Shown here: positions 13,961 through 62,548 of the stretch, piece by piece
How the letters are laid out: each line of letters opens with the position of its first letter
How positions within the stretch are numbered: position 1 is the first letter of the stretch
Assembly: GCA_046483495.1 (NCBI GenBank)
Contig: JAWODC010000064.1
Location: 55,892 to 119,891 of the forward strand
DNA: 64,000 nt
Direction: 5' to 3'
Origin: Desulfobacterales bacterium
GTDB taxonomy: Bacteria > Desulfobacterota > Desulfobacteria > Desulfobacterales > UBA5616
Position numbers and translations under genes: made by a program
The notes under the pieces: model-generated
Told to the model about the DNA's origin: nothing
The model's input: the letters and a program-made list of their open reading frames with translations, nothing else
Database searches by the model: none

Positions 13961-14104
13961 AGTGTCCATCCAGAAATAGGCAATTTCGCGTGAGTTCAAG
14001 ACGTGCGCAAGATCGAAACCGCAGGAATAGTGTGATGTTTTGAGGATTTCGATTTTGCGTCCAACGCAGAAATCTCGTGAAAGGGCCATTTATGTATGAA
14101 CACT
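13961..14104 (+). repeat. ~145-bp structured MITE-like intergenic repeat, copy A
   Basis: Ends AGTGTCCATCCAGAAAT / ATTTATGTATGAACACT are inverted; core AACCGCAGGAATAG...TTTTGAGGA; about 90% identical by eye to 52970-53113. Confidence 0.88.
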
Positions 14105-14135
14105 ACTTACACCATTTACTTCTAAAGGTGATATT

Positions 14136-14921
14136 ATGACATTTGAACGCGTTATTCTGGAAATCAAGGACACCATCGCCGTACTTACGCTGAACCACCC
14201 GAAAGCATTGAATGCCATATCCCGACAGATGAACCGGGAAATTCAGGATGCCCTGGATCTGATCGCCCGGACCGACAGCGGGGCACGCTGCCTGCTGATC
14301 ACCGGCGCCGGGCGGGGATTCTGCGCCGGCGCTAACCTCATGGATGACCCTCCGAATGATGGCCTGTCGCCGGGACAGCGGCATGTGAGCCGTTGGCTCC
14401 CTCTGTTTTTGAAGCTGCGGGACTTGCAAATGCCGACCGTCTCTGCGGTTAAGGGACCGGTCGTCGGTGTGGGCATGAGCCTCGCACTTTCCGCCGATAT
14501 TATACTGGCCGGCAGAAGCGCCTATTTCCTCCAGGCATTTGCCAGAATCGGCATCGCTCCGGACGGCGGCGCCACCTTTATCCTACCCAGGCTCATCGGG
14601 AAAGCCAGGGCCATGGAACTTTCACTCTTGGCGGATCGACTGCCCGCCGATAAGGCGTATGAATGGGGGCTGATCAATCGATTATGCGATGATGAAGCAC
14701 TGATGGATGAAGCCATGGACATGGCGGCCCGCCTGGCGAAAGGCCCAACCGCCGCTTTGGGGGCCACCCGGAAAGCCTATTGGATGGCGTTTGAAAACAC
14801 CTATGAACGGCAGTTTTATCTCGAGGGCGACATCCTGGAAGAGCTTTCCCGGACGGAGGACAGTGTCGAGGGAATAAAGGCTTTTGTCGAAAAGCGCGAA
14901 GCCCGGTTCAAGGGGAAATAA
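14136..14921 (+). CDS. Enoyl-CoA hydratase/isomerase (crotonase family)
   Basis: LNHPKALNA, GRGFCAGANL, GIAPDGG and EGIKAFVEKR motifs. Confidence 0.9.
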   Translation: MTFERVILEIKDTIAVLTLNHPKALNAISRQMNREIQDALDLIARTDSGARCLLITGAGRGFCAGANLMDDPPNDGLSPGQRHVSRWLPLFLKLRDLQMPTVSAVKGPVVGVGMSLALSADIILAGRSAYFLQAFARIGIAPDGGATFILPRLIGKARAMELSLLADRLPADKAYEWGLINRLCDDEALMDEAMDMAARLAKGPTAALGATRKAYWMAFENTYERQFYLEGDILEELSRTEDSVEGIKAFVEKREARFKGK

Positions 14922-15004
14922 TCCTTCTCCGGAACGCCGTTTTGCGGGGCCCGGGCATCATTTCCCCTGCTCCATCGGCAGTCGATGTTCTATTGATTTT
15001 TGGC

Positions 15005-15143
15005 CCTGATCATGCTTATATATTTCTTTATTCCATTTCTGCGTCGGCCGGAAGCCGGTATTCCCAGAGGATCTAAAGTGTTCTTCGGATAACATTTTCC
15101 GGCCGCCTTGAATTGAACCGAACCTTCTTTTCCGGGTGGACAC
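15005..15143 (-). repeat. Degenerate repeat copy B
   Basis: Minus strand reads GTGTCCACCCGGAAAAG...TTCAAGGCGGCCGG...CCGGCCGACGCAGAAATGG; right end is decayed. Confidence 0.6.
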
Positions 15144-15196
15144 ACGTTACCTGCGGAAAAATTCCATGCCCTTTTTCGAGATAAGGAGATTTCTTT

Positions 15197-16372
15197 ATGC
15201 GTCAACCCCTTTCCGGTTTTCGGGTTATCGACTTCGGCCATTATATCGCCGGTCCGTATGCCGCCATGCTGCTGGCGGAACAGGGAGCAGAAGTGATCAA
15301 GGTGGAGCGCCCTTCCGGAGACCCCTATCGCAGCGAGCCCGGGTTCATGGTGTTCAACCGCAGCAAAAAAGGGATTCGGCTGGACTTGAAGAGGGAAGAA
15401 GGCCGGCATATCGCCCGGGATTTAACCCGCCATGCCGATGTGATCGTGGAAAATTTCCGGCCGGGGACGGCCCAACGCCTCGGTATCGATTATGAGACGA
15501 TTTCCAAAGAAAATTCCCGTGCGGTATATTGTTCCATATCCGGATTCGGGCAATCCGGGCCCTACCGGGATATCCCCGGATGGGATCCCATCGTGGCATC
15601 CTATGCAGGTGTGTATGTCGAACAGGGTGGGGGCGAGGAAAATCCGCCTCTTTTTCTTGTGCTGCCCCTGCCCAGCTATTACGCCGCTTTCATGGCGGCA
15701 TTCGCCGTGGCCACTGCTCTTGTGACCCGTGAAATCACCGGCAACGGACAGCGCGTCGACATCTCGTTGTTCAAAGCCATCATGGCAACACAGAGCACAT
15801 ACATGTCCGAGTTCGAGGGCAAGATCCGCATACCCGGCGCGGCCCGAAGCAATCAGCAGGGCGCCATGCCCCTTTATAAACTCTACCAGGCCGGCGACGG
15901 CAAGTGGTTTTTTCTTGCACTTGGCAACCCGACTTTTTTTACGAAGTTTGCATTGGCTATGGGCCATGAAGAATGGCTGACGGACCCGATTTTCGAAGGA
16001 GCTCCGTTTTTGATACTGCCGCCGAGAAATGTCCGGCTTATCGAGAGGTTTGAAAAGATGTTTGCAGACCGCACACGGGATGAATGGATCGCCTTTTTGC
16101 AAAAAGATGACATCCCTTGCGCTCCGGCCGATTCCGTAAAACAATTTATGTCCGATCCCCAGGTGGCGGCAAATCGAATGGTTGTTGAAATCAATCAACC
16201 GGGCATTGGCCCGGTCCGTGAAATGGGTGTGCCGGTAAACCTGGAAAACACCCCTGGAGAAGTAAAAGCGGCCTGCCCTGAAGTCGGACAACATACACGT
16301 GACGTGTTGGACGGACTGCTTGGGTATACTTCGGAAAAGATTGCAGCGCTGACCGACAAACACGTTATCTGA
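15197..16372 (+). CDS. Class III CoA transferase (CaiB/BaiF), subunit 1
   Basis: IAGPYA..LLAEQGAEVIKVE, NRSK, ENFRPG and SISGFGQSGP motifs. Confidence 0.9.
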   Translation: MRQPLSGFRVIDFGHYIAGPYAAMLLAEQGAEVIKVERPSGDPYRSEPGFMVFNRSKKGIRLDLKREEGRHIARDLTRHADVIVENFRPGTAQRLGIDYETISKENSRAVYCSISGFGQSGPYRDIPGWDPIVASYAGVYVEQGGGEENPPLFLVLPLPSYYAAFMAAFAVATALVTREITGNGQRVDISLFKAIMATQSTYMSEFEGKIRIPGAARSNQQGAMPLYKLYQAGDGKWFFLALGNPTFFTKFALAMGHEEWLTDPIFEGAPFLILPPRNVRLIERFEKMFADRTRDEWIAFLQKDDIPCAPADSVKQFMSDPQVAANRMVVEINQPGIGPVREMGVPVNLENTPGEVKAACPEVGQHTRDVLDGLLGYTSEKIAALTDKHVI

Positions 16373-16387
16373 TAAACGGGAGGAACT

Positions 16388-17557
16388 ATGCATCCGTTGG
16401 AAAAAGTGCGTGTTGCAGATTTCACCACGATGATAAACGGCCCCTATGCCACCATGATGCTGTCCGATATGGGCGCGGATGTGATTAAAATAGAGCCCCC
16501 GTACGGCGATTCGTGGCGCGCCGTCGGAGGGGGGTTTCTCTCCTGCAACCGGGGAAAGCGGGCCGTAGCCGTGGACTTGAAAAAGGCCGAGGGAAGGCAG
16601 GTGGTGTTTGACATTATCGAAACCTCGAATATCGTCGTAGAGAATGCCCGATGGGGGGTATGGCATAAACTTGGATTGGATTATGAATCGGTTAAAGAGA
16701 AAAAGCCCGATCTGATCTATCTTTCGATTTTATCTTTCGGATCCACCGGCCCCGATGGCGAAAATCCGGGATTCGATCCCGTGCTTCAGGCAAGGAGCGG
16801 ACAAATGGTGGGCCAGGGAGGCATCGGAAAGCCTCCGGTTTACCACCTGATTGCCTTGAATGATCAGGCCGCCCCCATGCTTGGGGCCTACGGGGCCGTT
16901 CTCGCCCTGCTCTCACAGATCCGCCACGGCAAAACAGCCCGGCGTGTGGAAACCTCCCTGACAAACGCCTCCATTGCACTGCAGGCAGGCGAATTCGTCG
17001 ATTATGAAGGCGAAAATGTCCGTCGTCCAGGAGATACGGACCTGCGCGGTCTGAATGCCCTGATAAGGCTGTACCAGGCCGCCGACGGCCGGTGGCTTCA
17101 ACTGTGTTGCCCGTATGAACGGGACTGGCAGAATTTATGCCGAATACCCGAATTTGACTTTCTTTTGTCCGACCCGAGATTTGCTTCATCCGAAAATCGC
17201 ATTGAAAATGACGCCGCGCTGACCGGCCTGTTGTCGAAAACGATTACCCAAAAAACGGTAACCGACTGGATTCCCATCCTGCAGGAAAACGAAGTCCCCG
17301 CGGCACCCGCACAAAGTGCGGACGAAGTGCTCCAGGACTCGCATTGTCTGAAAGCCGGCGTCTTCGACGACCGGAAGGATTCGGTTTTCGGAATGGCGCG
17401 GCTCGTCGGGATCGGACCGCAATTTTCGGAAAGTTCGGGTATCATTCGGCGGCCTGCACCGCTTCTCGGAGAGCATACCGAAGAGGTGCTGACCGAAATC
17501 GGATACGCAAAAGAAAAAATTCGCGCCTTGAGGAAGGCGAAGGTCATTTATTACTAA
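16388..17557 (+). CDS. Class III CoA transferase (CaiB/BaiF), subunit 2
   Basis: GPYA...LSDMGADVIKIEP, NRGKR, GFDPVLQA and APLLGEHT motifs. Confidence 0.9.
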   Translation: MHPLEKVRVADFTTMINGPYATMMLSDMGADVIKIEPPYGDSWRAVGGGFLSCNRGKRAVAVDLKKAEGRQVVFDIIETSNIVVENARWGVWHKLGLDYESVKEKKPDLIYLSILSFGSTGPDGENPGFDPVLQARSGQMVGQGGIGKPPVYHLIALNDQAAPMLGAYGAVLALLSQIRHGKTARRVETSLTNASIALQAGEFVDYEGENVRRPGDTDLRGLNALIRLYQAADGRWLQLCCPYERDWQNLCRIPEFDFLLSDPRFASSENRIENDAALTGLLSKTITQKTVTDWIPILQENEVPAAPAQSADEVLQDSHCLKAGVFDDRKDSVFGMARLVGIGPQFSESSGIIRRPAPLLGEHTEEVLTEIGYAKEKIRALRKAKVIYY

Positions 17558-17618
17558 ACCTGCATAGCAGCGCGAAAAACCCGAACGTAAAAAATCTACA
17601 ACCAAGGAGGATGCTCGT

Positions 17619-17990
17619 ATGTACAAACGCTATATCGTGGAAATCGGCATGGGCGTCGATCAGCATGGCCACAAAAAAAACCCGACCAACGCTGCAGTCA
17701 AGGCGATAAAAAACGCCATTTCTAACAATTGCCTTGTGGGTCTGGCGGATATCGTGGGGATGAAGAGCCCCGCCGATATGCAGGTGGATGTGCTGATCGC
17801 GGTTCCCTACCCTGAAAATATCGACCGGGAAGGGGTTCTCGCCGCCATCCCCTTCGGGTCTAAAAACCTTACCGTAGTAAAGGGCGGGATGACCACCTCG
17901 GGTCTGCCGGTCCCGGCACTTGGGGATACCGACGGCGAAGTGCTGGTGGCCACGGCATCCGTTACGGTAAATGTAAAGGTGAATGAATAA
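17619..17990 (+). CDS. Lin0512 family protein
   Basis: KRYIVEIGMGVDQHG...T.AAVKAIKNAI...IPFG...GGM pattern; RBS AGGAGG. Confidence 0.8.
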   Translation: MYKRYIVEIGMGVDQHGHKKNPTNAAVKAIKNAISNNCLVGLADIVGMKSPADMQVDVLIAVPYPENIDREGVLAAIPFGSKNLTVVKGGMTTSGLPVPALGDTDGEVLVATASVTVNVKVNE

Positions 17991-18101
17991 CCGGCATCCA
18001 AAGCATCAAAAATCAAACACCCCGGCGCCTGTATGCGCATGCCGGAGGTTCGGATACAAGAAAAAATCGTTAACACATTCAAGCCACCAGGGGAGGACGC
18101 C

Positions 18102-19124
18102 ATGAAAGCAGCCTGTTACCATGGTTTGCGGGATATCACCTGTGAAGACATCGAAAAGCCCGCGATTATCGAACCCACCGATATTATCGTTAAAGTGGAG
18201 GCCTGTGGGATCTGCGGATCGGACCTTCACTCGTATAAGCTTGGGCTCTTTCCGGAAATCAGCATGGATACACCCAAGGGGCGGGTTCCCGGACATGAAT
18301 TCGGCGGTACGGTGGTTGAAACCGGGAACCGGGTGGAAGGAATCGAAACCGGAGACCGGGTCACGTGCATCGCCATGGGCGCCATGGCGGAATATGTGCG
18401 CGTGAGCAATGCATTTCCGGATCTGACGGTATATAAGCTGCCGGATGAAGTCGATTTCGAAGAGGCTGCAACCGTAGAACCGCTGGCCACCTCGCTTCAT
18501 GCCGCCCGAAAGGCCGAACCGGCCGAAGGGCAAACCGCGGTGGTGTTCGGTGCAGGAATCATCGGTTTGGGGATTATCCAATGCCTCAAGGCCATGGATA
18601 TTCGACTTGAGCACATCATCGCCGTGGATGTATCCGACAGGCGCCTGGAAATCGCCCGCAAGCTCGGCGCAACGCATTGCGTCAATGCCCTTCGTGAAGA
18701 TCCGTACGAAAAGGCCGTGGCGCTCACCGGCACCATTCCGTTTTCCTTGATGCCGGATGCGGGGAGCTTCCCCGCGGTAGATATCGTATATGATGCCGTC
18801 GGCTATATCGTCGAGCGCTCCGGTGTGCCGGTGTTCCAGCAGGCACTCCATATTGCCCGTGAAGGGGGCAGTGTGGTAGTCGTCGGGGTGTTCGAGCAAA
18901 ACGTTACGCTGGATCTTTCCGATCTGGTAACCAAGCAGGTCAATGTATTCGGATCATTTGCCTATACGCCTGATGAGGTTAAGCAGTGCATCGAATGGAT
19001 CAAAGCGAAAAAAGTCGACCGAAAAATGCTGATCAGCCATATTATGACTGTCGATCGGTGCAAGGATGCTTTTGACACGCAAGCCGATTTCGACGGATCC
19101 GTCAAAGTGCTGATCAAGCCCTGA
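18102..19124 (+). CDS. Zinc-binding (MDR) dehydrogenase
   Basis: CGICGSDLH, GHE and GAGIIG motifs; the structural-Zn Cys lobe is absent; start after GGAGG. Confidence 0.9.
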   Translation: MKAACYHGLRDITCEDIEKPAIIEPTDIIVKVEACGICGSDLHSYKLGLFPEISMDTPKGRVPGHEFGGTVVETGNRVEGIETGDRVTCIAMGAMAEYVRVSNAFPDLTVYKLPDEVDFEEAATVEPLATSLHAARKAEPAEGQTAVVFGAGIIGLGIIQCLKAMDIRLEHIIAVDVSDRRLEIARKLGATHCVNALREDPYEKAVALTGTIPFSLMPDAGSFPAVDIVYDAVGYIVERSGVPVFQQALHIAREGGSVVVVGVFEQNVTLDLSDLVTKQVNVFGSFAYTPDEVKQCIEWIKAKKVDRKMLISHIMTVDRCKDAFDTQADFDGSVKVLIKP

Positions 19125-19200
19125 CGAAAACGGGCTTTTCCACCAGTGGATTTCTCCTTGCCGCCCTTAGTCGAAAACGGCGGCTCCGAAAGGAGGGGTT

Positions 19201-22480: not shown

Positions 22481-22499
22481 CATTTCTGGATGGGCACTA
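22481..22499 (+). repeat. Isolated right terminal inverted repeat of the repeat family
   Basis: CATTTCTGGATGGGCACTA matches the right end of copy D (CATTTCCGGATGGGCACT). Confidence 0.6.
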
Positions 22500-27534: not shown

Positions 27535-28005
27535 ATGAAAAAACATATACTGGTTGCATTTGACGATTCTGAAAACGCAAAGCGGGCGGTAAACTATTTA
27601 GCCGAAATTTTAAACCCTGACAGTCATGTTACGCTTTTAAGTATCATGTTGGACACCGAAGCTTTGTGCAATATGAACAGCCCTGAGTTAACGCCCTATT
27701 TTAAATCTCAGCAAAGCAGCTTTTGCGTATTGGAAGACAAAAAAAAAGAACTATTGCAAAATGCCCTCGATCAGGCCAAAACAGCCCTTGTGGATGCCGG
27801 GTTCAAAGCATCGAATATCAGGATTAAATTGAATCCCAAAAAGCACGGCATTGCCCGGGATATCCTGATTGAAGCACAGTCCGGATACGATCTGCTGGTA
27901 ATGGGCAGAAGGGGTTTGTCCGGAATCAAGGATTTTTTCCTCGGGGGCGTATCACAGAAAGTTTTTTCACATGCAAAAGATATCTCCGTTTTGATCGTTA
28001 ATTAG
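27535..28005 (+). CDS. Universal stress protein
   Basis: ILVAFDDSENAKRA and DLLVMGRRG.......LGGVSQKV motifs; RBS AGGAGG. Confidence 0.9.
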   Translation: MKKHILVAFDDSENAKRAVNYLAEILNPDSHVTLLSIMLDTEALCNMNSPELTPYFKSQQSSFCVLEDKKKELLQNALDQAKTALVDAGFKASNIRIKLNPKKHGIARDILIEAQSGYDLLVMGRRGLSGIKDFFLGGVSQKVFSHAKDISVLIVN

Positions 28006-28171
28006 TATCCATCCGGAGTTAGAAGGTTTTGATCCTGATCCGGGCATGCGTTTCTTTTTGGAGCCACAGGAACAGTGAACCATTTTAAGGGCTTCAAAAA
28101 ACGCCAGAACGCCGCTTCAGTCTGGTCTCCATCCGGAAATGAGAAAATTCGCTTCAGGTAGAGGCGGCCGG
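28003..28171 (+). repeat. Two adjacent degenerate or partial repeat copies
   Basis: TAGTATCCATCCGGA...GCCACAGGAACAGTG...ATTTTAAGGG (decayed core), then TCCATCCGGAAATGAGAAAATTCGCTTCAGGTAGAGGCGGCCGG (left arm of the copy D/F type). Confidence 0.6.
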
Positions 28172-28288
28172 CAGCTCGATCTTCCCGTGACGTGCCGATA
28201 GGCCCAAACACCATTGACAATCGCCAAACATGATTATATTTTTGAAAAAATGTGTATCGGCAGCCGCTTTGTGTACTGTAATTTTTAC

Positions 28289-28434
28289 TACAAGGCGTCT
28301 CAAAATAAAGATTTTGGTCCAAGATCAAGACCGAGACACATGTTGAACCGCAGGCATACGCTTGTATGTTGAGGATTGAACATGCGGCTCCAACGAAGAG
28401 ATTCGGGCAAAAGATTATTTTGAGATGGCTTGTA
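28289..28434 (+). repeat. Repeat copy C with a different terminal inverted repeat
   Basis: TIR TACAAGGCGTCTCAAAATAA / TTATTTTGAGATGGCTTGTA (18/20 complementary); core AACCGCAGGCATACGCTTGTATGTTGAGGA. Confidence 0.85.
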
Positions 28435-45836: not shown

Positions 45837-46031
45837 TACGTGCCCACCTGAAAACGGATGGACACCGGTACGTTTTTCCCCTTGACCTATACGTCATGCC
45901 TACAGGATTGTAACGATCACCCTTACTGACCATGCGGTTCTTCGCTGCGGGATCGGCTGAAAGCTCGACCCTGCGGTTACGTGCGCCCTGCCCACGAACA
46001 TCCCGCCGCGGCACGGCCGGAAGTCACTGAT

Positions 46032-46175
46032 GATGCCCATTCAGAAATGAAAAAACTCGCTTCAGGTAAAGGCGGCCGGGTAATTTTAACCGCAGGAATA
46101 CGCCGAGTTTTTGAGGAATAAAAATGTTCGGTCAACGCAGAAATCGAGTGAATCAGCCATTTCCGGATGGGCACT
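46032..46175 (+). repeat. Repeat copy D
   Basis: TGCCCATTCAGAAATG / CATTTCCGGATGGGCA inverted ends; core TTTTAACCGCAGGAATAC...TTTGAGGAATAAAA. Confidence 0.88.
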
Positions 46176-46183
46176 GATTATGC

Positions 46184-46212
46184 TTGACATGCACTATGTT
46201 CTTGATTATAGG
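46184..46212 (+). promoter_or_regulatory. Putative sigma70 promoter of dsrT-dsrMKJOP
   Basis: TTGACA-N17-TATAGG. Confidence 0.6.
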
Positions 46213-46276
46213 TTCGTTTTTGAGTTTGTCCCTGAAAAAAATCACATTAATGATTTAAGATGCATAACGATTCATC

Positions 46277-51937: not shown

Positions 51938-52736
51938 ATGTGGTCAGTCTTTCTTTACCACAAAAAATATCCAGACCCGATCTCTTGGACAGGCATGCCA
52001 GTGTCATATTCAGTTTGTCGGCCAGGTCCACGGCAAGGCTTGTGGGTCTGGATACCGCTACTATGAGAGAAATTTTCGCCCGGGCGGCTTTTTGCACCAA
52101 TTCATAGCTGATTCGAGAAGAAAGCACCAGGATGTCGGCCTGATGCAACCGGTGCTCCAAAAAGAGTTTACCGATCGTCTTATCGAGAGCGTTGTGCCTG
52201 CCAACGTCCTCGGCGGCGCTTAGCACGTCACCTTGCATTGTATGAAGTGCGGCGGCATGGGTCGAGCGGGTTCTTCGACGAAGGGGCTGAAGGAGAGGCA
52301 GATCACTTACCAGCTTTTCAACCCGCCGCGCCTCGATCACAACGTCATCCGACAGGGGCTCAATCCATTGAAAGAAATCCTCCACCACCTCTTTTCCGCA
52401 TATACCGCAGCTCGTCCGGCTCAAAAACAATTGGCGGTCCATGATTTGAGGAAAGGCTTTGCGCCTGGCTTCACTCAAGGTAACCGCCACTACATTGGTG
52501 TCGGCACCGTCACAGAACGCCAACGTCCCCACATCCTGTGGAGCATCGATGATGCCCTCGCTAAGGCATAAACCGGCCGCGTGGGCGATTTCCTCACCGG
52601 GCGTCCGCATAACCACCACATAAGGCTTACCCTCCACCTGTATAGAAAGAGGCTCTTCAGCAACAAGCCGATCAGAAATGGATGTCATCCGGTGGCCGTC
52701 CCAGCGGCATATCGTTCGTTCTTTACATCTGTCCAA
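51936..52736 (-). CDS. fdhD: Formate dehydrogenase accessory sulfurtransferase FdhD
   Basis: EEPL, MRTPG, SCGICG, EDVGRHNALDK and SSRISYELVQKA motifs. Confidence 0.92.
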   Translation of the reverse strand: MDRCKERTICRWDGHRMTSISDRLVAEEPLSIQVEGKPYVVVMRTPGEEIAHAAGLCLSEGIIDAPQDVGTLAFCDGADTNVVAVTLSEARRKAFPQIMDRQLFLSRTSCGICGKEVVEDFFQWIEPLSDDVVIEARRVEKLVSDLPLLQPLRRRTRSTHAAALHTMQGDVLSAAEDVGRHNALDKTIGKLFLEHRLHQADILVLSSRISYELVQKAARAKISLIVAVSRPTSLAVDLADKLNMTLACLSKRSGLDIFCGKERLTT

Positions 52737-52750
52737 AATCCTCTTCCTCC

Positions 52751-52840
52751 TTATCCTTAAAAATCTTAGGTATAACTCGCGTTAAAAATGTTTCGTCCGC
52801 CTTGAAACGATCGAATTTTCGCATTTCCCGATGGACGCTA
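52751..52840 (-). repeat. Partial repeat copy (left two thirds) abutting the fdhD RBS
   Basis: Minus strand TAGCGTCCATCGGGAAATGCGAAAATTCG...TTCAAGGCGG...TTTTTAAC...TTTTAAGGATAA aligns to copy F. Confidence 0.65.
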
Positions 52841-52969
52841 ACGACAGATTTCTCTTGACAAAAGATGCATTTATATTAAGTATAAGTGTTTTTGAATTAT
52901 AGGTGATATGTAGCGTTTTACGATCTGATATTATAGTGTTTAGAGAGGTTTTCAACAGTTTTCGTTAAC

Positions 52970-53113
52970 TAGTCCATCCAGAAATAGGCGATTTCGCGTG
53001 GGTTCAAGGCGGGCGCGAGATCGAAACCGCAGGAATAGTGTGCTATTTTGAGGATTTCGATTTTGCGTTAAACGCAGAAATCGCGTGAAAGGGCCATTTA
53101 TGGATTGACACTA
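52970..53113 (+). repeat. Repeat copy E in the rplU leader region
   Basis: TAGTCCATCCAGAAATAGG...ATTTATGGATTGACACTA; near-identical to copy A. Confidence 0.9.
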
Positions 53114-53155
53114 ACTATCGGGATTCCGGTCGACAGTATCGAAGGGAGAATTTAT

Positions 53156-53467
53156 ATGTACGCTATCGTGAATACCGGCGGAAAACAATATAAGGTTCGC
53201 GAAGGGGATACGCTGCGGATTGAAAAAATCAATGGGGAATTAGGCTCTGAAATATTATTCGACCAGGTCCTGATGGTTTCGGACGGTGATAGTGTCAGCA
53301 TTGGGCGGCCTGTACTTGAAAACGCAGCGGTCAGTGGCCATGTCGTCGAACAGGGAAAAGCAAAGAAGATTATCGTTTTCAAGTACAAGCGACGAAAACG
53401 ATATCGCAGAAAACAGGGCCACCGGCAGCAGTTCACGGCGGTAAAGATCGACAAAATTACCATTTAG
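53156..53467 (+). CDS. rplU: 50S ribosomal protein L21
   Basis: MYAIVNTGGKQYKV...KYKRRKRYRRKQGHRQ. Confidence 0.97.
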   Translation: MYAIVNTGGKQYKVREGDTLRIEKINGELGSEILFDQVLMVSDGDSVSIGRPVLENAAVSGHVVEQGKAKKIIVFKYKRRKRYRRKQGHRQQFTAVKIDKITI

Positions 53468-54907: not shown

Positions 54908-56051
54908 TCTACGACAAAACGCCTTTACTCATGCCAAACGCATCGTTGTAAAAGTGGGGAGCAATGTACTGACATGGGATTCCGGTCTGAATTTAGATGC
55001 CATTCAGTCGCTCAGTGAACAAATCTCCGGTTTGCATGACAAGGAAAAGGAAATCATTTTGGTCAGTTCCGGAGCAATGGCCTCCGGGATCAAGAAAATT
55101 GGACTAAAGAAACGTCCGGATCTGATTCCTCAGCGGCAGGCGGCGGCGGCGGTCGGTCAAGCCGGTTTGATTATGGAATATGAAAAAGCATTTGCGCGCT
55201 ACGGCAAAAAGGTGGCCCAGATACTGCTGACCAGAGACGATCTTTCAAATCGTCGCCGCTATTTAAATGCCAGAAATACGCTGTGCACACTGCTCGCCTG
55301 GAAAGTGGTGCCCATTATCAATGAAAATGATACGGTCATGATCGAGGAAATCAAATTCGGAGACAACGATCAATTATCCGCCATGATCACGCTCCTGCTT
55401 GACGCGGACCTGTTGATCAACCTCACCGATATCGATGGGTTGTTTGACAAAGACCCCAGGACCCATAAGGATGCCGTCCTCATTCCGGAGATTACCCGCT
55501 ATAACAAAACGATTGAGCAGTATGCCGGTAAAATTCCCGGAGCCCTCGGAACGGGCGGCATGTTGAGCAAAATCAAAGCTGCAAAAAAAGTCACTACCGC
55601 CGGAGTGCCGATGATTATCGCAAACGGAAAGAAAGAAGGCCTTCTTTTCGACTTGTTTGCCGGGGAAAAAACAGGCACATTTTTTTTGCCGAATCGTGTC
55701 AAAATGACCTCGCGTAAATGCTGGATCGGCTTTAACGTTAAACCGAAAGGTACCCTGATTATCGATGACGGGGCGGCAACGGCCATTCTAAAACGAGGCA
55801 AAAGCCTGCTTCCCAGTGGAATCGTCGGCGTAACAGGCGATTTCGCCGTAGGATCGGCAGTAAAAATCCGAAAAGCGGAAACCGAGGATTTGGGCATCGG
55901 CCTCGTGAATTACAGCGCGGCGGATATTCGCAAAATCATGGGGCTGAAGACCACCATGATACGTGAGCGGCTCGGCGAAAAAACCTATGACGAAATTATA
56001 CATCGGAATAACCTGACGGTAACGGATGAGTTTGCATTAGAAGAGAAATGA
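54900..56051 (+). CDS. proB: Glutamate 5-kinase
   Basis: VVKVGS, VSSGA, NENDT, FGDND and GTGGM motifs; PUA domain. Confidence 0.96.
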   Translation: MVNLRQNAFTHAKRIVVKVGSNVLTWDSGLNLDAIQSLSEQISGLHDKEKEIILVSSGAMASGIKKIGLKKRPDLIPQRQAAAAVGQAGLIMEYEKAFARYGKKVAQILLTRDDLSNRRRYLNARNTLCTLLAWKVVPIINENDTVMIEEIKFGDNDQLSAMITLLLDADLLINLTDIDGLFDKDPRTHKDAVLIPEITRYNKTIEQYAGKIPGALGTGGMLSKIKAAKKVTTAGVPMIIANGKKEGLLFDLFAGEKTGTFFLPNRVKMTSRKCWIGFNVKPKGTLIIDDGAATAILKRGKSLLPSGIVGVTGDFAVGSAVKIRKAETEDLGIGLVNYSAADIRKIMGLKTTMIRERLGEKTYDEIIHRNNLTVTDEFALEEK

Positions 56052-56106
56052 TCCATCCGGAATCGGCAGGTTCCAACCCGGAAAAAAGCAGGGGGATTCA
56101 TCACCA

Positions 56107-57363
56107 ATGGAAATCGAAAAAACCATTTTAAACATGGCCGTAAACGCTCGAGAAGCGGCCCGGGAAATGGCGCACTGCAAAACATCGGCAAAAAATAACG
56201 TGCTTCTCGAAATTGCCGAGAACCTGACCAAGCGCCGCGATTTTCTTCAAGCGGAAAATCGCAAGGACCTGGAACGTGCAAAAACATCAGGCCTCTCGGA
56301 TGCCATGCTGGACCGTCTTACCATCAGAAATCAGACCATTCAGTCGATGGCCGACGGCCTCGTGCAGGTTGCGGCCATGGATGACCCTGTCGGCGCTACA
56401 GGCAAAACGTGGATCAGACCGAACGGCCTCGAAGTTTCGAAAATGAGAATTCCACTGGGAGTTATCGGCATCATTTATGAGTCCCGCCCCAACGTTACGA
56501 TAGATGCTGCAGGGCTTTGTTTGAAAGCCGGTAATGCCGTTATTTTACGCGGGGGATCAGAAGCGCTTTTCTCGAACCAGGCACTGGCGGGCATCATCCA
56601 TAAAGCGCTCGAAAAAGAAGGGCTGCCCGGAACCGCAGTACAGGTCATTCCCGTCCGGGACCGTGCCGCGGTAAACGCCATGCTGGCCCAGGAAGAATAT
56701 ATCGATTTGATCATCCCCCGCGGCGGAGAGGGCCTGATTCGTTTTGTGGTGGAAAATTCAACAATTCCGGTTCTCAAACATTACAAGGGCGTCTGCCATG
56801 TGTATGTGGATAAGGGGGCGGACCTGGACATGGCCCAGGAAATCAGTATTAACGCCAAGGTTCAGCGGCCGGGGGTATGCAATGCCATGGAAACCCTTCT
56901 CGTTCATAAGGATGCGGCTCATGAATTTCTTCCCCGGGTCGCCCGTCAATTCGCATCGGCCAAGGTGACGTTGAGGGGATGCGAGAAAACGCTTGATCTG
57001 CTGCCCGACATCGAACCGGCTGCGGAATCGGATTGGGCCGAGGAATATCTCGACCTGATTCTCGCGGTCAAGATTGTTTCCTCCATGGACGAGGCTATGG
57101 CGCACATCGCCCGTTACGGTTCCGACCATACGGAGTCGATCGTTACATCGGATTACGAGCGGGCAAGACGGTTTTTAAGGGAAGTCGATTCTTCCGTTGT
57201 TCTCGTAAACGCCTCGACGCGATTTAACGACGGCGGCGAACTGGGGTTAGGGGCGGAAATCGGAATCAGCACCTCCAAACTGCATGCTTTCGGCCCCATG
57301 GGAATCGAAGAGTTAACGACAACAAAGTTCGTTGTTTTGGGCGACGGACAAATTCGGGTTTAA
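56107..57363 (+). CDS. proA: Gamma-glutamyl phosphate reductase
   Basis: IYESRPNVT, IPRGG, VCNAME and NASTRF.DG...GAEIGIST.KLHA.GP motifs. Confidence 0.96.
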   Translation: MEIEKTILNMAVNAREAAREMAHCKTSAKNNVLLEIAENLTKRRDFLQAENRKDLERAKTSGLSDAMLDRLTIRNQTIQSMADGLVQVAAMDDPVGATGKTWIRPNGLEVSKMRIPLGVIGIIYESRPNVTIDAAGLCLKAGNAVILRGGSEALFSNQALAGIIHKALEKEGLPGTAVQVIPVRDRAAVNAMLAQEEYIDLIIPRGGEGLIRFVVENSTIPVLKHYKGVCHVYVDKGADLDMAQEISINAKVQRPGVCNAMETLLVHKDAAHEFLPRVARQFASAKVTLRGCEKTLDLLPDIEPAAESDWAEEYLDLILAVKIVSSMDEAMAHIARYGSDHTESIVTSDYERARRFLREVDSSVVLVNASTRFNDGGELGLGAEIGISTSKLHAFGPMGIEELTTTKFVVLGDGQIRV

Positions 57364-57374
57364 AAGGAGCTTCG

Positions 57375-58043
57375 TTGAAGAAAATAGGGCTTTTCGGCGG
57401 CACGTTCAATCCCATTCATTTTGCCCATTTGAGAACGGCACTGGAAGTGAAGGAAGAATTCAGCCTGGACAGCATCGTACTGATTCCTTCCGCCATTCCA
57501 CCGCATAAAAAGCCCGATCATATCGCTGAAGCCGAACAGAGGCTTCATATGATCCGGTTGGCCATCGCGGATGATCCGGACTTTTCCTTCTCTGATATAG
57601 AACTGCAGCGAACAGGCCCCTCATTTACCATAGAGACGGTTCACTATTTCAGCAAAATGAGCGATCCGGCCGCCGAACTATTTTTCGTCATCGGATCGGA
57701 TGCCTTTTGCGAACTCGACACCTGGAAATCGTATGTTGAACTTTTAGCCTCCATTCCCTTTATCGTCATGATCAGGCCGGAAACGCCCTGTCCGGATCCG
57801 GAATCCAAATCCGGCCAAATTGAAAATTTCCTGCATGACAAAATATCGAAGGACTATGTCCTCCACCGTTCGAAAAACGGGTATTTTCATCCGGAGCTTC
57901 AGCCCGTGTATATTCAGAAAGTGACAGCCATGGATATTTCTTCAACCCGGATCAGAACGATTATCCGTCGGCACGGCTCCATACGATACCTCGTACCCCA
58001 GACGGTGGAAACATTCATTTTAACCAAAGGACTCTATAGATGA
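57375..58043 (+). CDS. nadD: Nicotinate-nucleotide adenylyltransferase
   Basis: GGTFNPIH.AH, PPHK, IGSDA and ISST.IR motifs. Confidence 0.95.
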   Translation: MKKIGLFGGTFNPIHFAHLRTALEVKEEFSLDSIVLIPSAIPPHKKPDHIAEAEQRLHMIRLAIADDPDFSFSDIELQRTGPSFTIETVHYFSKMSDPAAELFFVIGSDAFCELDTWKSYVELLASIPFIVMIRPETPCPDPESKSGQIENFLHDKISKDYVLHRSKNGYFHPELQPVYIQKVTAMDISSTRIRTIIRRHGSIRYLVPQTVETFILTKGLYR

Positions 58044-58453
58044 CACAAAAAACGGAGCCCGCACTCGATCTTTTTTTAAATATCATCCAAGAGCGAAAAG
58101 CCTTGGATATCGTAGTGCTGGACGTATCCGGGCTGTCTTCGGTAGCAGACACATTCATTATCTGCAGCGGCCGCTCCACCCGCCAGGTGAGCGCCATTGC
58201 AGATCACATACAATCCGAAATGAGAAAGATCGGCGTCAAGCCTCTGGGAATCGAGGGAAAGACCGCCGGGCACTGGATACTGATGGACTACGGGCATATC
58301 GTAATTCACATATTTTTTACCGAAACGCGTGAGTTCTTTAATCTGGAAGGACTGTGGAGCGATGCCGAACGCATTGATATTCCTGCACCGGCTCAAAAGC
58401 CTGCGCCGCATGAAAATGACACTACGGCATTCGTTTTCAATGATGACGATTAG
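58040..58453 (+). CDS. rsfS: Ribosome silencing factor
   Basis: KALDI, ICSG.S.RQV.AI and WILMDYG...HIF....R.F.NLE.LW motifs. Confidence 0.95.
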   Translation: MTQKTEPALDLFLNIIQERKALDIVVLDVSGLSSVADTFIICSGRSTRQVSAIADHIQSEMRKIGVKPLGIEGKTAGHWILMDYGHIVIHIFFTETREFFNLEGLWSDAERIDIPAPAQKPAPHENDTTAFVFNDDD

Positions 58454-58489
58454 TTGGTGTCCATACAGCGAAGCTGGGAGCTTTTGCGA

Positions 58490-60034
58490 ATGTTGACCAA
58501 ACCCGTATGCCTTTTGATGATTTTAGATGGATGGGGAATAGGTGAGAACGATGAAACAAATGCTATTTACATGGCCCGCACACCGAATCTGGACCGCCTC
58601 GAACACGCTTACCCCCACACACGGCTTGCCTGTTCGGGAGAAGCCGTCGGGCTGCCCTCGGGCATCATGGGAAACTCCGAAGTCGGCCACCTGAATATCG
58701 GGGCCGGCAGAATCGTCTACCAGGATCTTCTGAGAATCGACAAATCCATCGAAGACGGGTCTTTTTTCCAGAATCCGGTCCTTTGCAAGGTTATGGAAGA
58801 TGTGCGTGCCTGTAGAGGAGCCCTTCATTTGATGGGTTTGGTGTCGGATGGCGGCGTTCATAGCCAATTGTCACACGTGTTCGCACTGCTCGATATGGCC
58901 CGGAAAAAGGGCCTTACCCGTGTGTTTATCCATGCCGTGTTGGACGGGCGGGACACGCCGCCCGACAGCGGCATAACGTATATACGCCGTCTGGTAAAAC
59001 ATTTGCAGCAGAATGGTATAGGTCGGATTGCAGACATTTGCGGGCGTTTTTACGCCATGGATAGGGATACACGCTGGGAAAGGACCCGGAAAGCCTATGA
59101 AATGGTTGTAAATGGAATCGGGCTTGCCGAAACCGATCCTGTCGAGGCTGTAAAAAATGCCTATACCCGTGGTGAAACCGACGAATTCGTTCGACCCGTG
59201 GTGATGGTGGATAGCTACGACCGCCCATTGGCAACGGAACAAAACGGGGATGGCATGATTTTTTTCAATTTTCGGGCTGATCGGGCACGTCAAATTACCC
59301 GGGCCTTCACTGAAACCGAATTTGATCGATTCGTGCGAGGACCGAAACCGGCTTTTTGCACTTACGCCTGCATGACGGTTTATGACGAAACATTCGATCT
59401 GCCGGCGGCGTTTCCTCCGGAACACTTGAAAGACATACTGGGAGAGGTCGTGAGCCAAAACGGCTTATCCCAACTCCGAATCGCCGAAACCGAAAAATAT
59501 GCCCATGTCACCTATTTTTTCAACGGCGGAGAGGAAAAATCGTTTCCCGGTGAGGATCGATGCCTCATTCCCTCTCCCAGGGACATTGAAACCTATGATA
59601 AAAAACCCCAAATGAGTGCGCCGGAAGTGACTAAAGAACTGATAAGGCGAATAAGAACCGATAAATATGATCTCATCGTGCTGAACTTCGCCAATATGGA
59701 TATGGTCGGCCACACGGGAAACATGCAGGCGGCCGTTTCGGCCTGCGAAACGCTGGATATCTGTGTAGGCGAAATCGTTGCCTCTGTTTTGGATAGAAAG
59801 GGTACGGTCCTGATTACCGCAGACCACGGAAATGCTGAAAAGATGATCAGTCAAAACGCATCGCCGCATACCGCGCATACGCTGAATAAGGTGCCGTTTT
59901 TCCTTGTAGACGATCGCCATCGGCAAAGGCAATTGAAATCCGGTGGGGCCCTATGTGATATCGCCCCCACCCTTCTGAAGGTCCTCAACCTTCCTAAGCC
60001 CGGCATCATGACGGGCAAGTCTTTGATTATGTAA
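58490..60034 (+). CDS. gpmI: 2,3-BPG-independent phosphoglycerate mutase
   Basis: ILDGWG, MGNSEVGH, DGGVHS, AETEKYAHVT, DMVGHTG and ADHGN motifs. Confidence 0.96.
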   Translation: MLTKPVCLLMILDGWGIGENDETNAIYMARTPNLDRLEHAYPHTRLACSGEAVGLPSGIMGNSEVGHLNIGAGRIVYQDLLRIDKSIEDGSFFQNPVLCKVMEDVRACRGALHLMGLVSDGGVHSQLSHVFALLDMARKKGLTRVFIHAVLDGRDTPPDSGITYIRRLVKHLQQNGIGRIADICGRFYAMDRDTRWERTRKAYEMVVNGIGLAETDPVEAVKNAYTRGETDEFVRPVVMVDSYDRPLATEQNGDGMIFFNFRADRARQITRAFTETEFDRFVRGPKPAFCTYACMTVYDETFDLPAAFPPEHLKDILGEVVSQNGLSQLRIAETEKYAHVTYFFNGGEEKSFPGEDRCLIPSPRDIETYDKKPQMSAPEVTKELIRRIRTDKYDLIVLNFANMDMVGHTGNMQAAVSACETLDICVGEIVASVLDRKGTVLITADHGNAEKMISQNASPHTAHTLNKVPFFLVDDRHRQRQLKSGGALCDIAPTLLKVLNLPKPGIMTGKSLIM

Positions 60035-60049
60035 AAGACGGTGAATACA

Positions 60050-60586
60050 ATGTCTGAAAACAAAGATATTACTTTTATAAGGGATTTTGCCACAGGCAAA
60101 GAAATACCATTGATCGGATCGGAAGAAAATCGCCAGGCGGTTGAAAAAATGCTCATCAATGATAAAGGGTACGATTCATCCGATATCGATATCGATGTCG
60201 AGATCGCTTTTAACGTAAAAAATATGCCCTACAAATCCAAAGTGGACCTTATCGTGACCGTCGACAAAACACGATTTATGCTGGTCAAGTGTGTTGCCGG
60301 TTCCATCGGTTCGTGGGAACGCGAAGCATTGGCCGCGGCTCGGATTATCGCGCCCTACCCGATTCCGTTCACCTTGGTATCCGACGGCAATGACGCAACC
60401 GTTATAAATACGATTACGGGGAAGGTCATTGGAAATACGGCGGTTGACATTCCAACAAAGAACGGCGCCTTGCAATACCTGGCAAATTTTACTCCGAATC
60501 CTTTGCCGGACGAACGGTTTGAGAAGGAGCGGCTTATTTTCAGAACCTATGATACCATGAATGTCAATGTCCTCCGAGATGAATAG
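60050..60586 (+). CDS. Stand-alone type I restriction HsdR N-terminal-like domain protein
   Basis: EENRQ.....L...KGY....I and VDLIV motifs. Start is 60041 (GTG) or 60050. Confidence 0.65.
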   Translation: MSENKDITFIRDFATGKEIPLIGSEENRQAVEKMLINDKGYDSSDIDIDVEIAFNVKNMPYKSKVDLIVTVDKTRFMLVKCVAGSIGSWEREALAAARIIAPYPIPFTLVSDGNDATVINTITGKVIGNTAVDIPTKNGALQYLANFTPNPLPDERFEKERLIFRTYDTMNVNVLRDE

Positions 60587-60719
60587 CTCGAAAAGACTGC
60601 CTCGGCAATGTGCCCATACCTGTTCGATTCTCCAGGCAGGCTCATGTCAGCGGTATCCGACATCTCGGAGCAAAACGTCTTGAGACACCAAGGCGGTCGC
60701 CGAAAAGGCCACAAAGGTC

Positions 60720-60748
60720 TTGACATTGCGATAAGTATCACTTAATTA
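60720..60748 (+). promoter_or_regulatory. Putative sigma70 promoter with overlapping inverted repeat
   Basis: TTGACA-N17-TAATTA; TAAGT-ATC-ACTTA at 60732-60744. Confidence 0.45.
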
Positions 60749-60868
60749 ATTGCATCGTCAAATTCTATGACCCTGTAAACGGTTCAGGCTGACCATTCCC
60801 GCATCTCGGTTTTTTTGTTGTATAAAACCCGCTCTGAACAACCTGTCAGCCCATTAGGAGAAACATTA

Positions 60869-61513
60869 TTGAAAGAAAATTCAATGCCTTATTTTGATGA
60901 GCCAAATGGGGACGAAGAGATGTTCAACAAGGCATCTCTGCCGCCGGGAGGGGTTAAACTCATCGATACGTTGAAAATTCTGCTCAAGGATAAGGAATTC
61001 AACGCCATTACCACGGCAGAAATAGCAAAAATGGCCGGCGTCAATGAAGCCCTGATTTACAAGTATTTCAGGAGCAAACGGGGATTGTTGCACGCGGTTC
61101 AAACCGATTTCACAAATCACTTTTTTAAACATATTGCTTCAAATCTCAAGGGAATACAAGGCGCTTCCAATAAGTTAAAGAAAATCCTGTGGGCGCATAT
61201 CAATTACTATCTCGAAGATCCCGTATTTGCGAGAATTCTCGTTTTGGAGGTCAGAACATACCCGGGCTACTTTAAAAGTGAAAGCTATTACTGGATTAAG
61301 CGATATACCCGTCTGGTGCGTCAAATCATTGAAGAAGGCATCCAAGAACAGGAAATCAGGAGCGATTTGCCCAGTTGGGCGATTATGCAGATCATTATGG
61401 GGGGAATAGAGCACTTGATCATGCCCAACGTTTTGTTTAAACGAGAACTGGATACGGATGAATTGACCGAATATCTATGGGAAGTCATTTTCAAAGGTAT
61501 AAAAAAATCTTGA
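60869..61513 (+). CDS. TetR family regulator
   Basis: ITTAEIAKMAGVNEALIYKYFRSK helix-turn-helix. TTG start after AGGAG; ATG 60884 is an alternative. Confidence 0.9.
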   Translation: MKENSMPYFDEPNGDEEMFNKASLPPGGVKLIDTLKILLKDKEFNAITTAEIAKMAGVNEALIYKYFRSKRGLLHAVQTDFTNHFFKHIASNLKGIQGASNKLKKILWAHINYYLEDPVFARILVLEVRTYPGYFKSESYYWIKRYTRLVRQIIEEGIQEQEIRSDLPSWAIMQIIMGGIEHLIMPNVLFKRELDTDELTEYLWEVIFKGIKKS

Positions 61514-61567
61514 ACCCATTGCGTATAAACATGCCGTTCGCCTGCCGTGCCTTTTTCTGAAATTAAA

Positions 61568-61712
61568 TAGTTCCCATTGGAAATGAGAAAATCCGCTTCA
61601 GTTCAAGGCGGCCTGAAATTTTTAACCGCAGGAATACGATACGTAATTTGAGGATTAGAATTTTCCGGCAAACGCGGAAATGGAGTGGATCAGCCGTTTC
61701 CGGGCGGGCACT
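61568..61712 (+). repeat. Repeat copy F
   Basis: TAGTTCCCATTGGAAATG...TTTTAACCGCAGGAATAC...TTTGAGGATTAG...CGTTTCCGGGCGGGCACT. Confidence 0.85.
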
Positions 61713-61744
61713 CAAATGTATATGATCCTTGTGAGGATAACGAC

Positions 61745-62383
61745 ATGACCGTCAAACAGGTTCTGTTGTCGAAAATGGATGTATTTTGTTATATCATTGG
61801 AGATGACGACACGGGAAAATGCGCCTTGATCGACCCTGCTTTCGATACGGAAACCATATTGGATGAGGTTGATGGTTTTGGATTTCGGGTAGCAGCCGTT
61901 ATCAATACCCACGGGCATTCGGATCACAGCGCCGGAAATTCGGCAATCATAGAGGCTACCGGAGCAAAACTTTACATCCATCAAGCCGATGCCAAAAAGC
62001 TTTCCGGATTGGCAGGCAGTGCCTTTTCCCGGTTGCTGGGCGGCAAGCGATCTCCTGAAGCCAATGTTTTTCTTGAGGATGGCGATACGATACCCATTGG
62101 AAATACGGCATTGAACGTGATTCATACACCCGGACATACACCCGGTGGCATTTGCATCCATATACCGGGCCATGTTTTTACCGGAGATACCCTGTTTGTA
62201 GGCGCTGTGGGTAGAACCGATCTTCCCGGAGGATCTATGAAGCAGCTGTTGGATTCGATTCATCGAAAACTTTACACACTGCCGGGAAATACGCGGGTGT
62301 GGCCCGGTCATGATTATGGCGAGTTTCCTTACTCCACTATCGAAACGGAAAAAAAGACAAACCCTTTTACACTCGGTGACTGA
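61745..62383 (+). CDS. MBL-fold metallo-hydrolase (glyoxalase II family)
   Basis: THGHSDH, HTPGH, FTGDTLF and PGHDY motifs. Confidence 0.92.
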   Translation: MTVKQVLLSKMDVFCYIIGDDDTGKCALIDPAFDTETILDEVDGFGFRVAAVINTHGHSDHSAGNSAIIEATGAKLYIHQADAKKLSGLAGSAFSRLLGGKRSPEANVFLEDGDTIPIGNTALNVIHTPGHTPGGICIHIPGHVFTGDTLFVGAVGRTDLPGGSMKQLLDSIHRKLYTLPGNTRVWPGHDYGEFPYSTIETEKKTNPFTLGD

Positions 62384-62413
62384 CCGGGATGCGATCAGGC
62401 CAATGATATAAAG

Positions 62414-62548
62414 GAGCCCATTCAGGACCGGCTGATTCGCTCTATTTCGATGTGGGCCGAAAAAATTTTTATCCTAAAAAGTATATTTCTGCGGTTAAAA
62501 TACACCGGCCACCCTGGACTCAATCGAATCTCATTTCTGAATGGACAC
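62414..62548 (-). repeat. Repeat copy G
   Basis: Minus strand GTGTCCATTCAGAAATGAG...TTTTAACCGCAGAAATA...TTAGGATAAAA...AATCAGCCGGTCCTGAATGGGCTC. Confidence 0.8.

Follow-up and report, generated by a model that had tools for sequence, protein, structure and literature searches.

The window analysed here, a stretch of 64,000 nucleotides from a Desulfobacterales genome (assembly GCA_046483495.1, contig JAWODC010000064.1, positions 55,892 to 119,891), carries a family of short repeats among its genes (Table 1). Family sequence is present at all 11 sites listed in a preliminary description of this DNA, and a genome-wide profile matches 10 of them, the exception being the lone terminal repeat. Copy A has a CAAX protease gene on one side and an enoyl-CoA hydratase gene on the other.

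Table 1. Family copies and related features in the window.
Feature	Position	Strand	Remarks
Copy A	13962..14103	+	subfamily a2, ISNCY-type ends
Copy B	15005..15143	-	subfamily a1, decayed, without 3' end; profile match 15027-15144
Lone ISNCY-type terminal repeat	22481..22497	-	at stop codon
Decayed a3 copy	28005..28096	+	TA-nn-TA target directly before
a1 fragment, 5' third	28125..28173	+	
Copy C	28291..28432	+	subfamily b; common core, IS1182-like ends, TA on either side
Core-less palindrome, 26 nt	45840..45865	+	two ISNCY-type ends joined
Copy D	46033..46174	+	subfamily a1
a1 fragment, 5' part	52751..52838	-	at start of FdhD gene
Copy E	52972..53111	+	subfamily a2, upstream of rplU
Core of copy E	53005..53078	+	outer module around inner module and apical hairpin
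Copy F	61570..61711	+	subfamily a1
Copy G	62414..62548	-	subfamily a1, decayed

Seven copies had been called near complete. This is true of A, C, D, E and F, whose rod fold is stable (z -3.2 to -8.0, equalled by none of 200 shuffles); the fold is weak in the decayed copy G (z -1.9) and in copy B, now without its 3' end (z +0.2). The sequence does contain the stem pairs given for A, C, E and F. The motifs described as fixed are present but less fixed than claimed: among the seven long copies TCAAGGCG is exact in three (B, E, F), while AACCGCAGG and TTGAGGA are exact in five (A, C, D, E, F). In copy E the outer module reads CAAGGCG ... AACGCAG with a spacer of 59 nt, the inner module reads CC-GCA-G / Y-GA-GG-A, and the element is flanked by a perfect 6-bp target duplication (52966-52971 and 53112-53117). 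The corresponding flanks of copy A (13956-13961 and 14104-14109) agree at five of six positions. Copy C, unlike the other copies, has different ends and a TA target, a difference overlooked in the preliminary description.

Collecting copies from the whole genome, as had been suggested, gave 263 profile matches at E<=0.01, 161 of them near full length; the reversed genome gave none, which excludes chance. The elements are 142-143 bp long and have terminal inverted repeats, and the long matches lie mostly between ORFs (181, with 11 inside an ORF call). A 6-bp duplication of the TA-nn-TA type is exact in 14 of 105 anchored copies (shuffled mean 0.8, maximum 4), with no excess of duplications at 2, 3 or 7-10 bp among these copies, and TA stands on either side of nine of ten b-type copies. 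A search of related genomes for empty sites found the copy E site empty in G001, G002 and G003 and the copy F and G sites both empty in G001 and G003; at the copy D site another decayed copy lies nearby in G001 and none in G003. The family is thus a MITE: short, non-coding and dispersed, with terminal repeats, target duplication and empty orthologous sites. The duplication, the empty sites and ends that match an insertion sequence (below) bear out the proposal of a non-autonomous mobile element. Although a plain MITE had been set aside, the family does belong to the MITEs and has a cognate IS. As a kind, such elements are familiar, and relatives of this family are already in print.

A Pfam scan of 29 of the window's 162 ORFs of >=90 aa revealed no transposase, in line with the preliminary description, and a genome-wide search with PF01609, PF05598 and NF033593 gave a single match, outside the window's contig. 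The genome's one intact PF01609 transposase belongs to an IS1634 element whose ends lack family sequence, and it was rejected as the partner. Six pairs of terminal repeats 0.2-4 kb apart in the same genome, as well as 20 unpaired-looking ends in G041, G042 and G006, were considered as insertion sequences and proved to be MITEs or mini-palindromes. Related genomes, on the other hand, contain ISNCY elements with matching ends, whose transposases score 433-447 bits against NF033593 (cut-off 325). We take these elements to be the ISDol1 group of ISfinder, with a duplication of 6-7 bp. IS and MITE have in common the terminal repeats GTGTCCATCCA and the TA-nn-TA duplication, which is exact and 6 bp long in 7 of 11 ISNCY copies (one further copy has a 7-bp duplication), and they occur together in G041 and G042; Desulfosarcina alkanivorans PL12 is a host of both. 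They differ in that the IS is 1.68-1.69 kb long, encodes a DDE transposase of 452-453 aa and has no core. In this assembly (96.7% complete) no intact ISNCY transposase was found, only a left-end remnant on contig C50.

The MITE is not a simple internal deletion of the IS, because both of its repeats resemble the right end. AAA occupies positions 13-15 at both MITE ends in 90-100% of 91 copies; among the IS ends compared, 7 of 8 on the right carry it and none of 8 on the left. An origin from left end, IS interior and right end of ISNCY failed when tested, the core being absent from the three ISNCY elements examined; when the model was run on 98 IS loci, it gave 11 matches, and the eight inspected were separate elements beside the IS. 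An IS1380 pair in one genome (L233/L029) shows the same pattern, and the b-type ends match their candidate partner only loosely (L204 vs L005). Judged by ends and duplication, the MITE likely borrows the transposase of the ISNCY insertion sequence in trans; this enzyme would be responsible for a-type copies, and an IS1182-like one for b-type copies.

Once inserted, copies decay neutrally, with motifs lost as fast as stems. Substitution is 7.4% in motifs and 5.9% in stems for a1 copies (64 of 98), and 2.9% and 3.3% for a2 copies (36). Orientation to transcription is also inconsistent. In this genome copies behind stop codons show no preference (51 sense, 59 antisense), and a weak bias is seen before start codons (63 vs 35, p 0.006) and between tandem genes (58 vs 36, p 0.03); elsewhere the trend behind stop codons is opposite (11 vs 20), and the weak bias is not repeated in 51 loci (11 vs 14). 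A bias against the G-rich strand (68 vs 40) was judged from local skew in a fragmented assembly, and neither it nor a replichore pattern was seen in two complete chromosomes. Neutral decay and the lack of consistent orientation together indicate that selection likely acts on copying and not on an RNA function for the host. The suggestion of a host structured RNA thus fares badly. If copies were regulatory RNAs or riboswitch-like elements kept for neighbouring genes, as the label 'predicted short RNA elements' proposes for a Geobacter family (PMC2700814, in its description of them), one would not expect their flanking genes to be mutually unrelated, as they are, nor the syntenic sites of relatives to be empty, the copies to decay and target duplications to be present. 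For the family as a whole this explanation is largely refuted, and we give it almost no credence; single domesticated copies are possible.

What the elements share is the folded core. We aligned 55 cores with plain MAFFT, leaving out of 56 representatives the row with an insertion (L003). Pairing amounts to 85.4%, against 58.8% in shuffled and 34-42% in slid alignments, a test that overstates covariation as the rows are related, and both sides change in 33 of 40 stem pairs. The covarying core of the preliminary description is therefore upheld, with a one-strand bias in addition. In alignment A1 the motifs CAAGGCG, CCGCAGG and GAGGA are invariant by construction, since the search pattern contains them; independent of the pattern are only the downstream AAC motif, present at 82 of 121 genome loci and 0 of 21 viral loci, and the subfamilies found by profile. 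Mismatches on the motif strand are G.T in 182 cases and A.C in 37; with the four G.T-rich columns removed, G.T still exceeds A.C in 15 clusters, with the reverse in 5, of 25. Purine-purine mismatches exceed pyrimidine-pyrimidine ones in 23 clusters and the reverse holds in none. The inner module occurs arm-swapped on the same strand in 28 of 301 phylum genomes (control 0). Of 24 such loci, 23 also have the outer motif, at a spacer of 58-62 nt, and over three inner architectures, that of ERIC among them, the outer spacer is held at 56-63 nt. Because the mismatches are G.T and purine-purine and the arms are swapped on the same strand, the folded motif strand would be the selected form.

Template switching in a quasi-palindrome yields compensatory changes without selection. 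The core might accordingly do nothing: inherited from one old MITE, it would owe its paired changes to template switching and its varied ends to recombination. The right arm does mirror the left in one copy (C81:52), motif conservation is inflated by the pattern, and the copies decay neutrally. Template switching, however, removes mismatches, whereas here the unpaired loops are retained even where the intervening stems have been replaced completely; moreover, it predicts no excess of G.T over A.C, and the spacer is held across three architectures. We consider this account improbable.

G.U pairs, like G/A loops, are a typical feature of RNA, and the folding energies of the two strands lie further apart when computed with RNA parameters (-8.5 vs -3.9 kcal/mol). 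A MITE whose co-transcribed rod presents loops to which a protein of the host binds or which modulate cleavage by RNase, with core lineages tolerated near genes or favoured in transposition via RNA, would explain the G.U-rich stems and purine-rich loops. It would fit the weak sense bias before start codons in this genome and the position of copy E in a likely rplU leader, as well as the orientation-dependent mRNA decay described for ERIC in Yersinia (PMC2229807, in its section on ERIC). Against it stand the orientations behind stop codons, the apical loops, none of which is a GNRA or UNCG tetraloop in 56 cores, and the neutral decay of inserted copies. On balance we regard a fold acting as RNA as unlikely, albeit the most serious competitor. 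The inner module was also compared with the kink-turn consensus, which has a 3-nt bulge followed by G.A and then A.G pairs; all 55 rows have G at the second position, paired to T or C, and the kink-turn was rejected.

Elements from at least seven phyla carry the core between IS1380-, IS1182- and IS5-like ends, and the central rod is not an IS interior, the IS interiors examined being without a core. In a tree of 56 cores only 2 of 53 branches are well supported, and some of its end labels are mistaken (three rows wrongly called IS1380, one ISNCY row missed); we give little weight to its rejection of a single clade for the six rows with ISNCY ends (p-AU 0.012). Strand-specific recognition of mismatches is typical of HUH enzymes, and palindromes of 26-45 nt in which the ends are joined without a core exist both here (45840-45865) and elsewhere (L134, L141, L142, L147). 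The core could on that account be a separate mobile hairpin, comparable to REPINs, that inserts into short IS-end palindromes by means of an HUH or other single-strand enzyme. The duplication, however, lies outside the IS-type ends and matches that of the IS, and we found no fixed junction between core and arm. Neither an HUH nor another nuclease family recurs among 109 flanking proteins, no RAYT gene was detected among these proteins from other genomes or the 29 window proteins, and 21 pattern matches in viral contigs, none with the downstream motif, include no real element. A separately mobile hairpin is therefore very improbable.

Whether the family had been described was left open in the preliminary description. 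Rfam 15 gives no match in the window at the gathering threshold and four chance matches (E>=1.8) in 52600-53300. The outer motif, however, is part of the ERIC consensus, and the core is listed in Geobacter metallireducens. ERIC (IRU, RU-1) is likewise a rod-shaped non-coding MITE, and its consensus as printed in Table 1a of PMC2759123 carries, on the reverse strand, the outer module CAAGGCG ... CAACGCAG in the same fold, with a spacer of 61 nt against 58-60 nt in the Desulfobacterales family. Model R1, which was ERIC-free when built, gave five matches in E. coli K-12, and the top four are ERIC copies (E 5e-6, 1e-4, 8e-4 and 0.09), identified as such by eye against the consensus. ERIC differs in its length (127 bp vs 142 bp), in its arms and ends, and in an inner loop that is symmetric (GA/GA vs GCA/GA); it has TA ends, seen here in the b-type only, instead of the 6-bp duplication of a-type copies. 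Rfam family V_AS5 (RF02818) overlaps the ERIC consensus with a score below threshold. The bacterial-MITE reviews name no transposase for ERIC in their sections on it, and that of 2007 (PMC2229807) there leaves its movement mechanism as a question for future work.

The 24 elements Gmet_R1001-R1024 of Geobacter metallireducens were published in 2009 under the name 'predicted short RNA elements' (PMC2700814). By eye and with no model score, the printed rows show a central palindrome with flanking modules, as in the Desulfobacterales core: 5 of 24 carry the inner module, printed on the opposite strand, 19 have the arm-swapped form, and seven have an exact outer CAAGGCG. Where it lists these rows, that account mentions neither terminal repeats nor a target duplication, names no IS partner and makes no connection with ERIC. 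RUP, Correia/NEMIS, Nezha and Chunjie, as described in the relevant sections of PMC2229807, PMC3184786 and PMC10969869, are also short and folded, with IS-like terminal repeats, target duplication and frequent stop-codon sites; they differ in having one IS family apiece, and a core common to MITEs of different IS families is not reported for them in those sections. A catalogue of MITEs from 183,232 genomes (PMC11602168) may already list these families.

The family may also resemble pneumococcal BOX. In attC sites, IS200/IS605 and REP hairpins an imperfect hairpin is read on one strand through its unpaired bases. The present family differs in its DDE-type duplication, in having no integrase or HUH gene nearby, and in that the core AAC has no GTT partner.

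Taken together, we hold, with about an even chance of being right, that these 142-bp non-coding MITEs are likely moved in trans by an ISNCY-family DDE transposase, and that their rod, likely folded on a single DNA strand, would raise the rate of copying. The folded middle recurs between unrelated IS ends, in several phyla and partly in ERIC, and for this reason likely helps miniature elements to copy themselves. Selection would act on the transposing lineage, because the motifs persist between families and not within inserted copies. The fold may act as DNA: it would pair the two termini of so short an element and hold out two G/A-rich loops, a set distance apart, for recognition. As the transposase is variable, the reader is probably a host factor that is conserved. 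New families could arise when a core beside an IS copies the IS right end to both of its sides by hairpin-templated synthesis. More tentatively, and with somewhat less confidence than an even chance, we suggest that the core is a pan-bacterial single-strand adapter, with ERIC as a member, that would let miniature elements parasitise the unrelated DDE transposases of ISNCY, IS1380, IS1182 and IS5. It would acquire a new pair of ends by duplicating the right end of an IS on either side of itself, and a conserved host factor would read the G/A loops in their fixed geometry and so drive transposition.

The movement and the conserved middle of ERIC-type repeats have been open questions since 1990-91. 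As the present family combines an ERIC-like outer module with an identifiable autonomous partner of matching ends and duplication, the role of the core becomes directly testable. MITEs are commonly pictured as deleted insertion sequences; in this family, by contrast, it is the interior that is retained and the ends that are replaced. Repeats of this kind may be mistaken for small regulatory RNAs, which is what happened with Geobacter in 2009. Elements also fall into length classes near 120-126, 142 and 175 bp, with few members.

Family sequence was found at all 11 sites that the preliminary description had assigned to one repeat family. Its count of seven near-complete copies holds for A, C, D, E and F, which are long rods with fold z-scores of -3.2 to -8.0, while G (z -1.9) and B (z +0.2) are decayed. 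Genome-wide collection with an iterated profile yielded 263 family matches in the 4.19-Mb genome, of which 161 span 80% or more of the model; the reversed genome, used as control, gave none. A direct Rfam match, which had been named as a possible counter-finding, was absent when the family was compared with Rfam. The genes encoded in the window are unrelated ones of metabolism and the ribosome; the nearest relatives, going by tree labels, are Desulfobacterales.

Five subfamilies were distinguished in the source genome. Direct repeats of 6 bp (consensus TA-nn-TA) flank the a1-a3 copies: of 105 that could be anchored, 14 have an exact repeat (shuffled mean 0.8) and 34 have one when a single mismatch is allowed (5.5 shuffled). 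Nine of the 10 intact subfamily b copies have TA on both sides. Common to all five is the core, in which an outer module of CAAGGCG facing AACGCAG is followed inward by the variable stem, an inner loop (GCA facing GA, with a bulged A next) and a short hairpin at the apex.

Subfamilies of the element in the source genome
Subfamily	Copies	Length (bp)	Ends	Other feature
a1	98 full	142-143	GTG(T/C)CCATCC	
a2	36 full	142-143	GTG(T/C)CCATCC	
a3	10 full	142-143	GTG(T/C)CCATCC	
b	10 intact	141-142	unlike a1-a3	includes copy C
fifth	18 of the 30 rows of its search		third end type	C-G to G-C swap within inner motif

Several variants were noted. Members of a 175-180-nt class (loci L016, L029, L045, L101 and L121) carry the GA/GCA module a third time, within the outer stem, and small palindromic units of other kinds sit inside the arms or the apical loop at L003, L137, L139, L149, L150 and L380. 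A GC-rich inverted repeat just before copy D (~45930-45980(-)) contains an exact AACCGCAGG at 45978(-) and may be an older core whose arms differ. Two ISNCY-type ends joined without a core form palindromes of 26-45 nt (45840-45865, 12403(-), 53614(-); L134, L141, L142, L147), which would be either deletion products or the smallest mobile form. In the copy at G000:C81:52-195 the right arm mirrors the left near-perfectly, either through template switching or as an artefact of assembly at the contig end. Two fifth-subfamily copies with identical flanks, at the ends of source-genome contigs C27 and C50, are likely a single locus assembled twice.

The proposal of a non-autonomous mobile element is borne out by the 6-bp target duplication, by empty sites and by insertion sequences whose ends match. 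Where relatives share the gene order, they have ~120-160 bases fewer at the sites of E, F and G, and family sequence is missing there. A DDE transposase search of genomes rich in the element recovered insertion sequences of 1.68-1.69 kb that share the MITE ends, and their transposases score 433-447 bits on the ISNCY model NF033593 (cut-off, 325 bits). Of 11 ISNCY copies, seven have an exact 6-bp duplication of the MITE type and one a 7-bp duplication; two have none and one is cut by a contig end. The matching ends and the duplication suggest that the ISNCY enzyme moves the element, and we are highly confident that the MITE family is real, with a likely ISNCY partner. A genome-wide search of the source genome found no full ISNCY transposase, only a left-end remnant with the enzyme's first codons on C50. 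There (G000:C50:4951-4500(-)) the remnant is followed by another hairpin element and then by a reading frame whose start, we assume, resembles a GIY-YIG nuclease. An intact 544-aa IS1634 transposase (L001, on source-genome contig C25) was rejected as partner, being unrelated to the family; it adjoins another inverted-repeat element.

The core does not derive from the insertion sequences. It was absent from all three ISNCY elements examined, and the covariance model gave 11 matches on 98 IS loci, of which the eight inspected are separate elements adjoining the IS; four of these directly abut an IS end at a shared target. End capture could draw on such junctions with intact IS (L206, L210, L223, L348). 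It is the IS right end that both MITE ends resemble: positions 13-15 read AAA in 90-100% of 91 MITE copies, and in ISNCY this triplet is present in 7/8 right ends and 0/8 left ends. The same rule is seen in an IS1380 element (L233) and a 180-nt element (L029) of one genome.

The exact core pattern was found at 121 loci in 3 of the 64 parts of the GTDB collection, from which ~3,800 stretches are estimated for the whole. A downstream AAC motif, absent from the search pattern, is present at 82 of these loci, and at 69 together with a paired stem; none of 21 viral matches has it. Real elements carry record labels of Thermodesulfobacteriota, Acidobacteriota, Planctomycetota, Myxococcota, Pseudomonadota, Bacteroidota, Omnitrophota and Actinomycetota, although MAG labels may err. 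Eight of 41 genomes in the relatives sample have the pattern, the source genome included. Element ends match IS1380 (L233) and IS1182 (L206 with L021, in one genome) and, more loosely, IS5 elements (L307, L308). No recurring family was found among 109 flanking proteins.

Covariation of the core, as had been claimed, was recovered when 55 non-redundant cores were aligned with MAFFT: pairing is seen in 85.4% of cells vs 58.8% when shuffled, a control that related rows, as these are, can beat, and 34-42% with partners slid; motif columns are fixed by the search pattern. Changes on both sides occur in 33 of 40 core pairs. The fold prefers one strand (G.T 182 vs A.C 37; 51/55 rows vs 0), also without the four G.T-rich columns (27 vs 11 rows; 15 vs 5 of 25 clusters). 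In 23 clusters there are more purine-purine than pyrimidine-pyrimidine mismatches, the reverse in none. A sister form, present in 28 of the 301 genomes searched from the phylum (control, 0), has the arms of the inner module exchanged without a change of strand; this differs from an inversion and makes sense only if the strand folds. Arm-swapped loci keep the outer motif in 23 of 24 cases, at a spacing of 58-62 nt (present form, 56-63 nt, mostly 58-60).

The ERIC consensus, as printed in PMC2759123, contains the complete outer module when read on the reverse strand. In E. coli ERIC copies this module folds alike, with a 61-nt spacer, and a model built without ERIC (R1) gave five matches on the K-12 chromosome, the best four being ERIC copies, which also score on Rfam V_AS5 below threshold. 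ERIC differs in inner hairpin, length and ends, so it is related to the family without belonging to it. The core also occurs in Geobacter metallireducens, where it was listed in 2009 (PMC2700814) as 24 "predicted short RNA elements"; by eye, 5 of the 24 rows have the present inner module and 19 are arm-swapped. The literature searched, with few subscription papers and without the primary ERIC papers or the supplement of a large MITE catalogue, gave no account of one core across MITEs of different IS families, nor of the core's link to ERIC.

Within subfamilies, motifs and stems are substituted about equally often, at 7.4% vs 5.9% in a1 (the 64 of 98 copies that are 80% or more alike) and, over 36 copies, 2.9% vs 3.3% in a2. 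Our inference is that selection on the core acts in the copying lineage rather than on the resting copy. What is selected is probably one folded strand, serving the spread of the element itself. That strand has an even chance of being DNA. An RNA fold is less likely, and we rate DNA about twice as probable. The motif strand is more often sense before start codons in the source genome (63 vs 35, p 0.006) and in tandem genes there (58 vs 36, p 0.03), a bias not repeated in other genomes (11 vs 14). Behind stop codons, sense and antisense copies number 51 and 59 in the source genome and 11 and 20 elsewhere, and the 56 apical loops include no GNRA or UNCG loop. Two promoter-like blocks starting with TTGAC, at 52850-52895 and 46178-46215 of the window, are kept in relatives G001 and G003, and G002 shares the former. 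Between this first block and rplU lies copy E, and copy D directly precedes the second.
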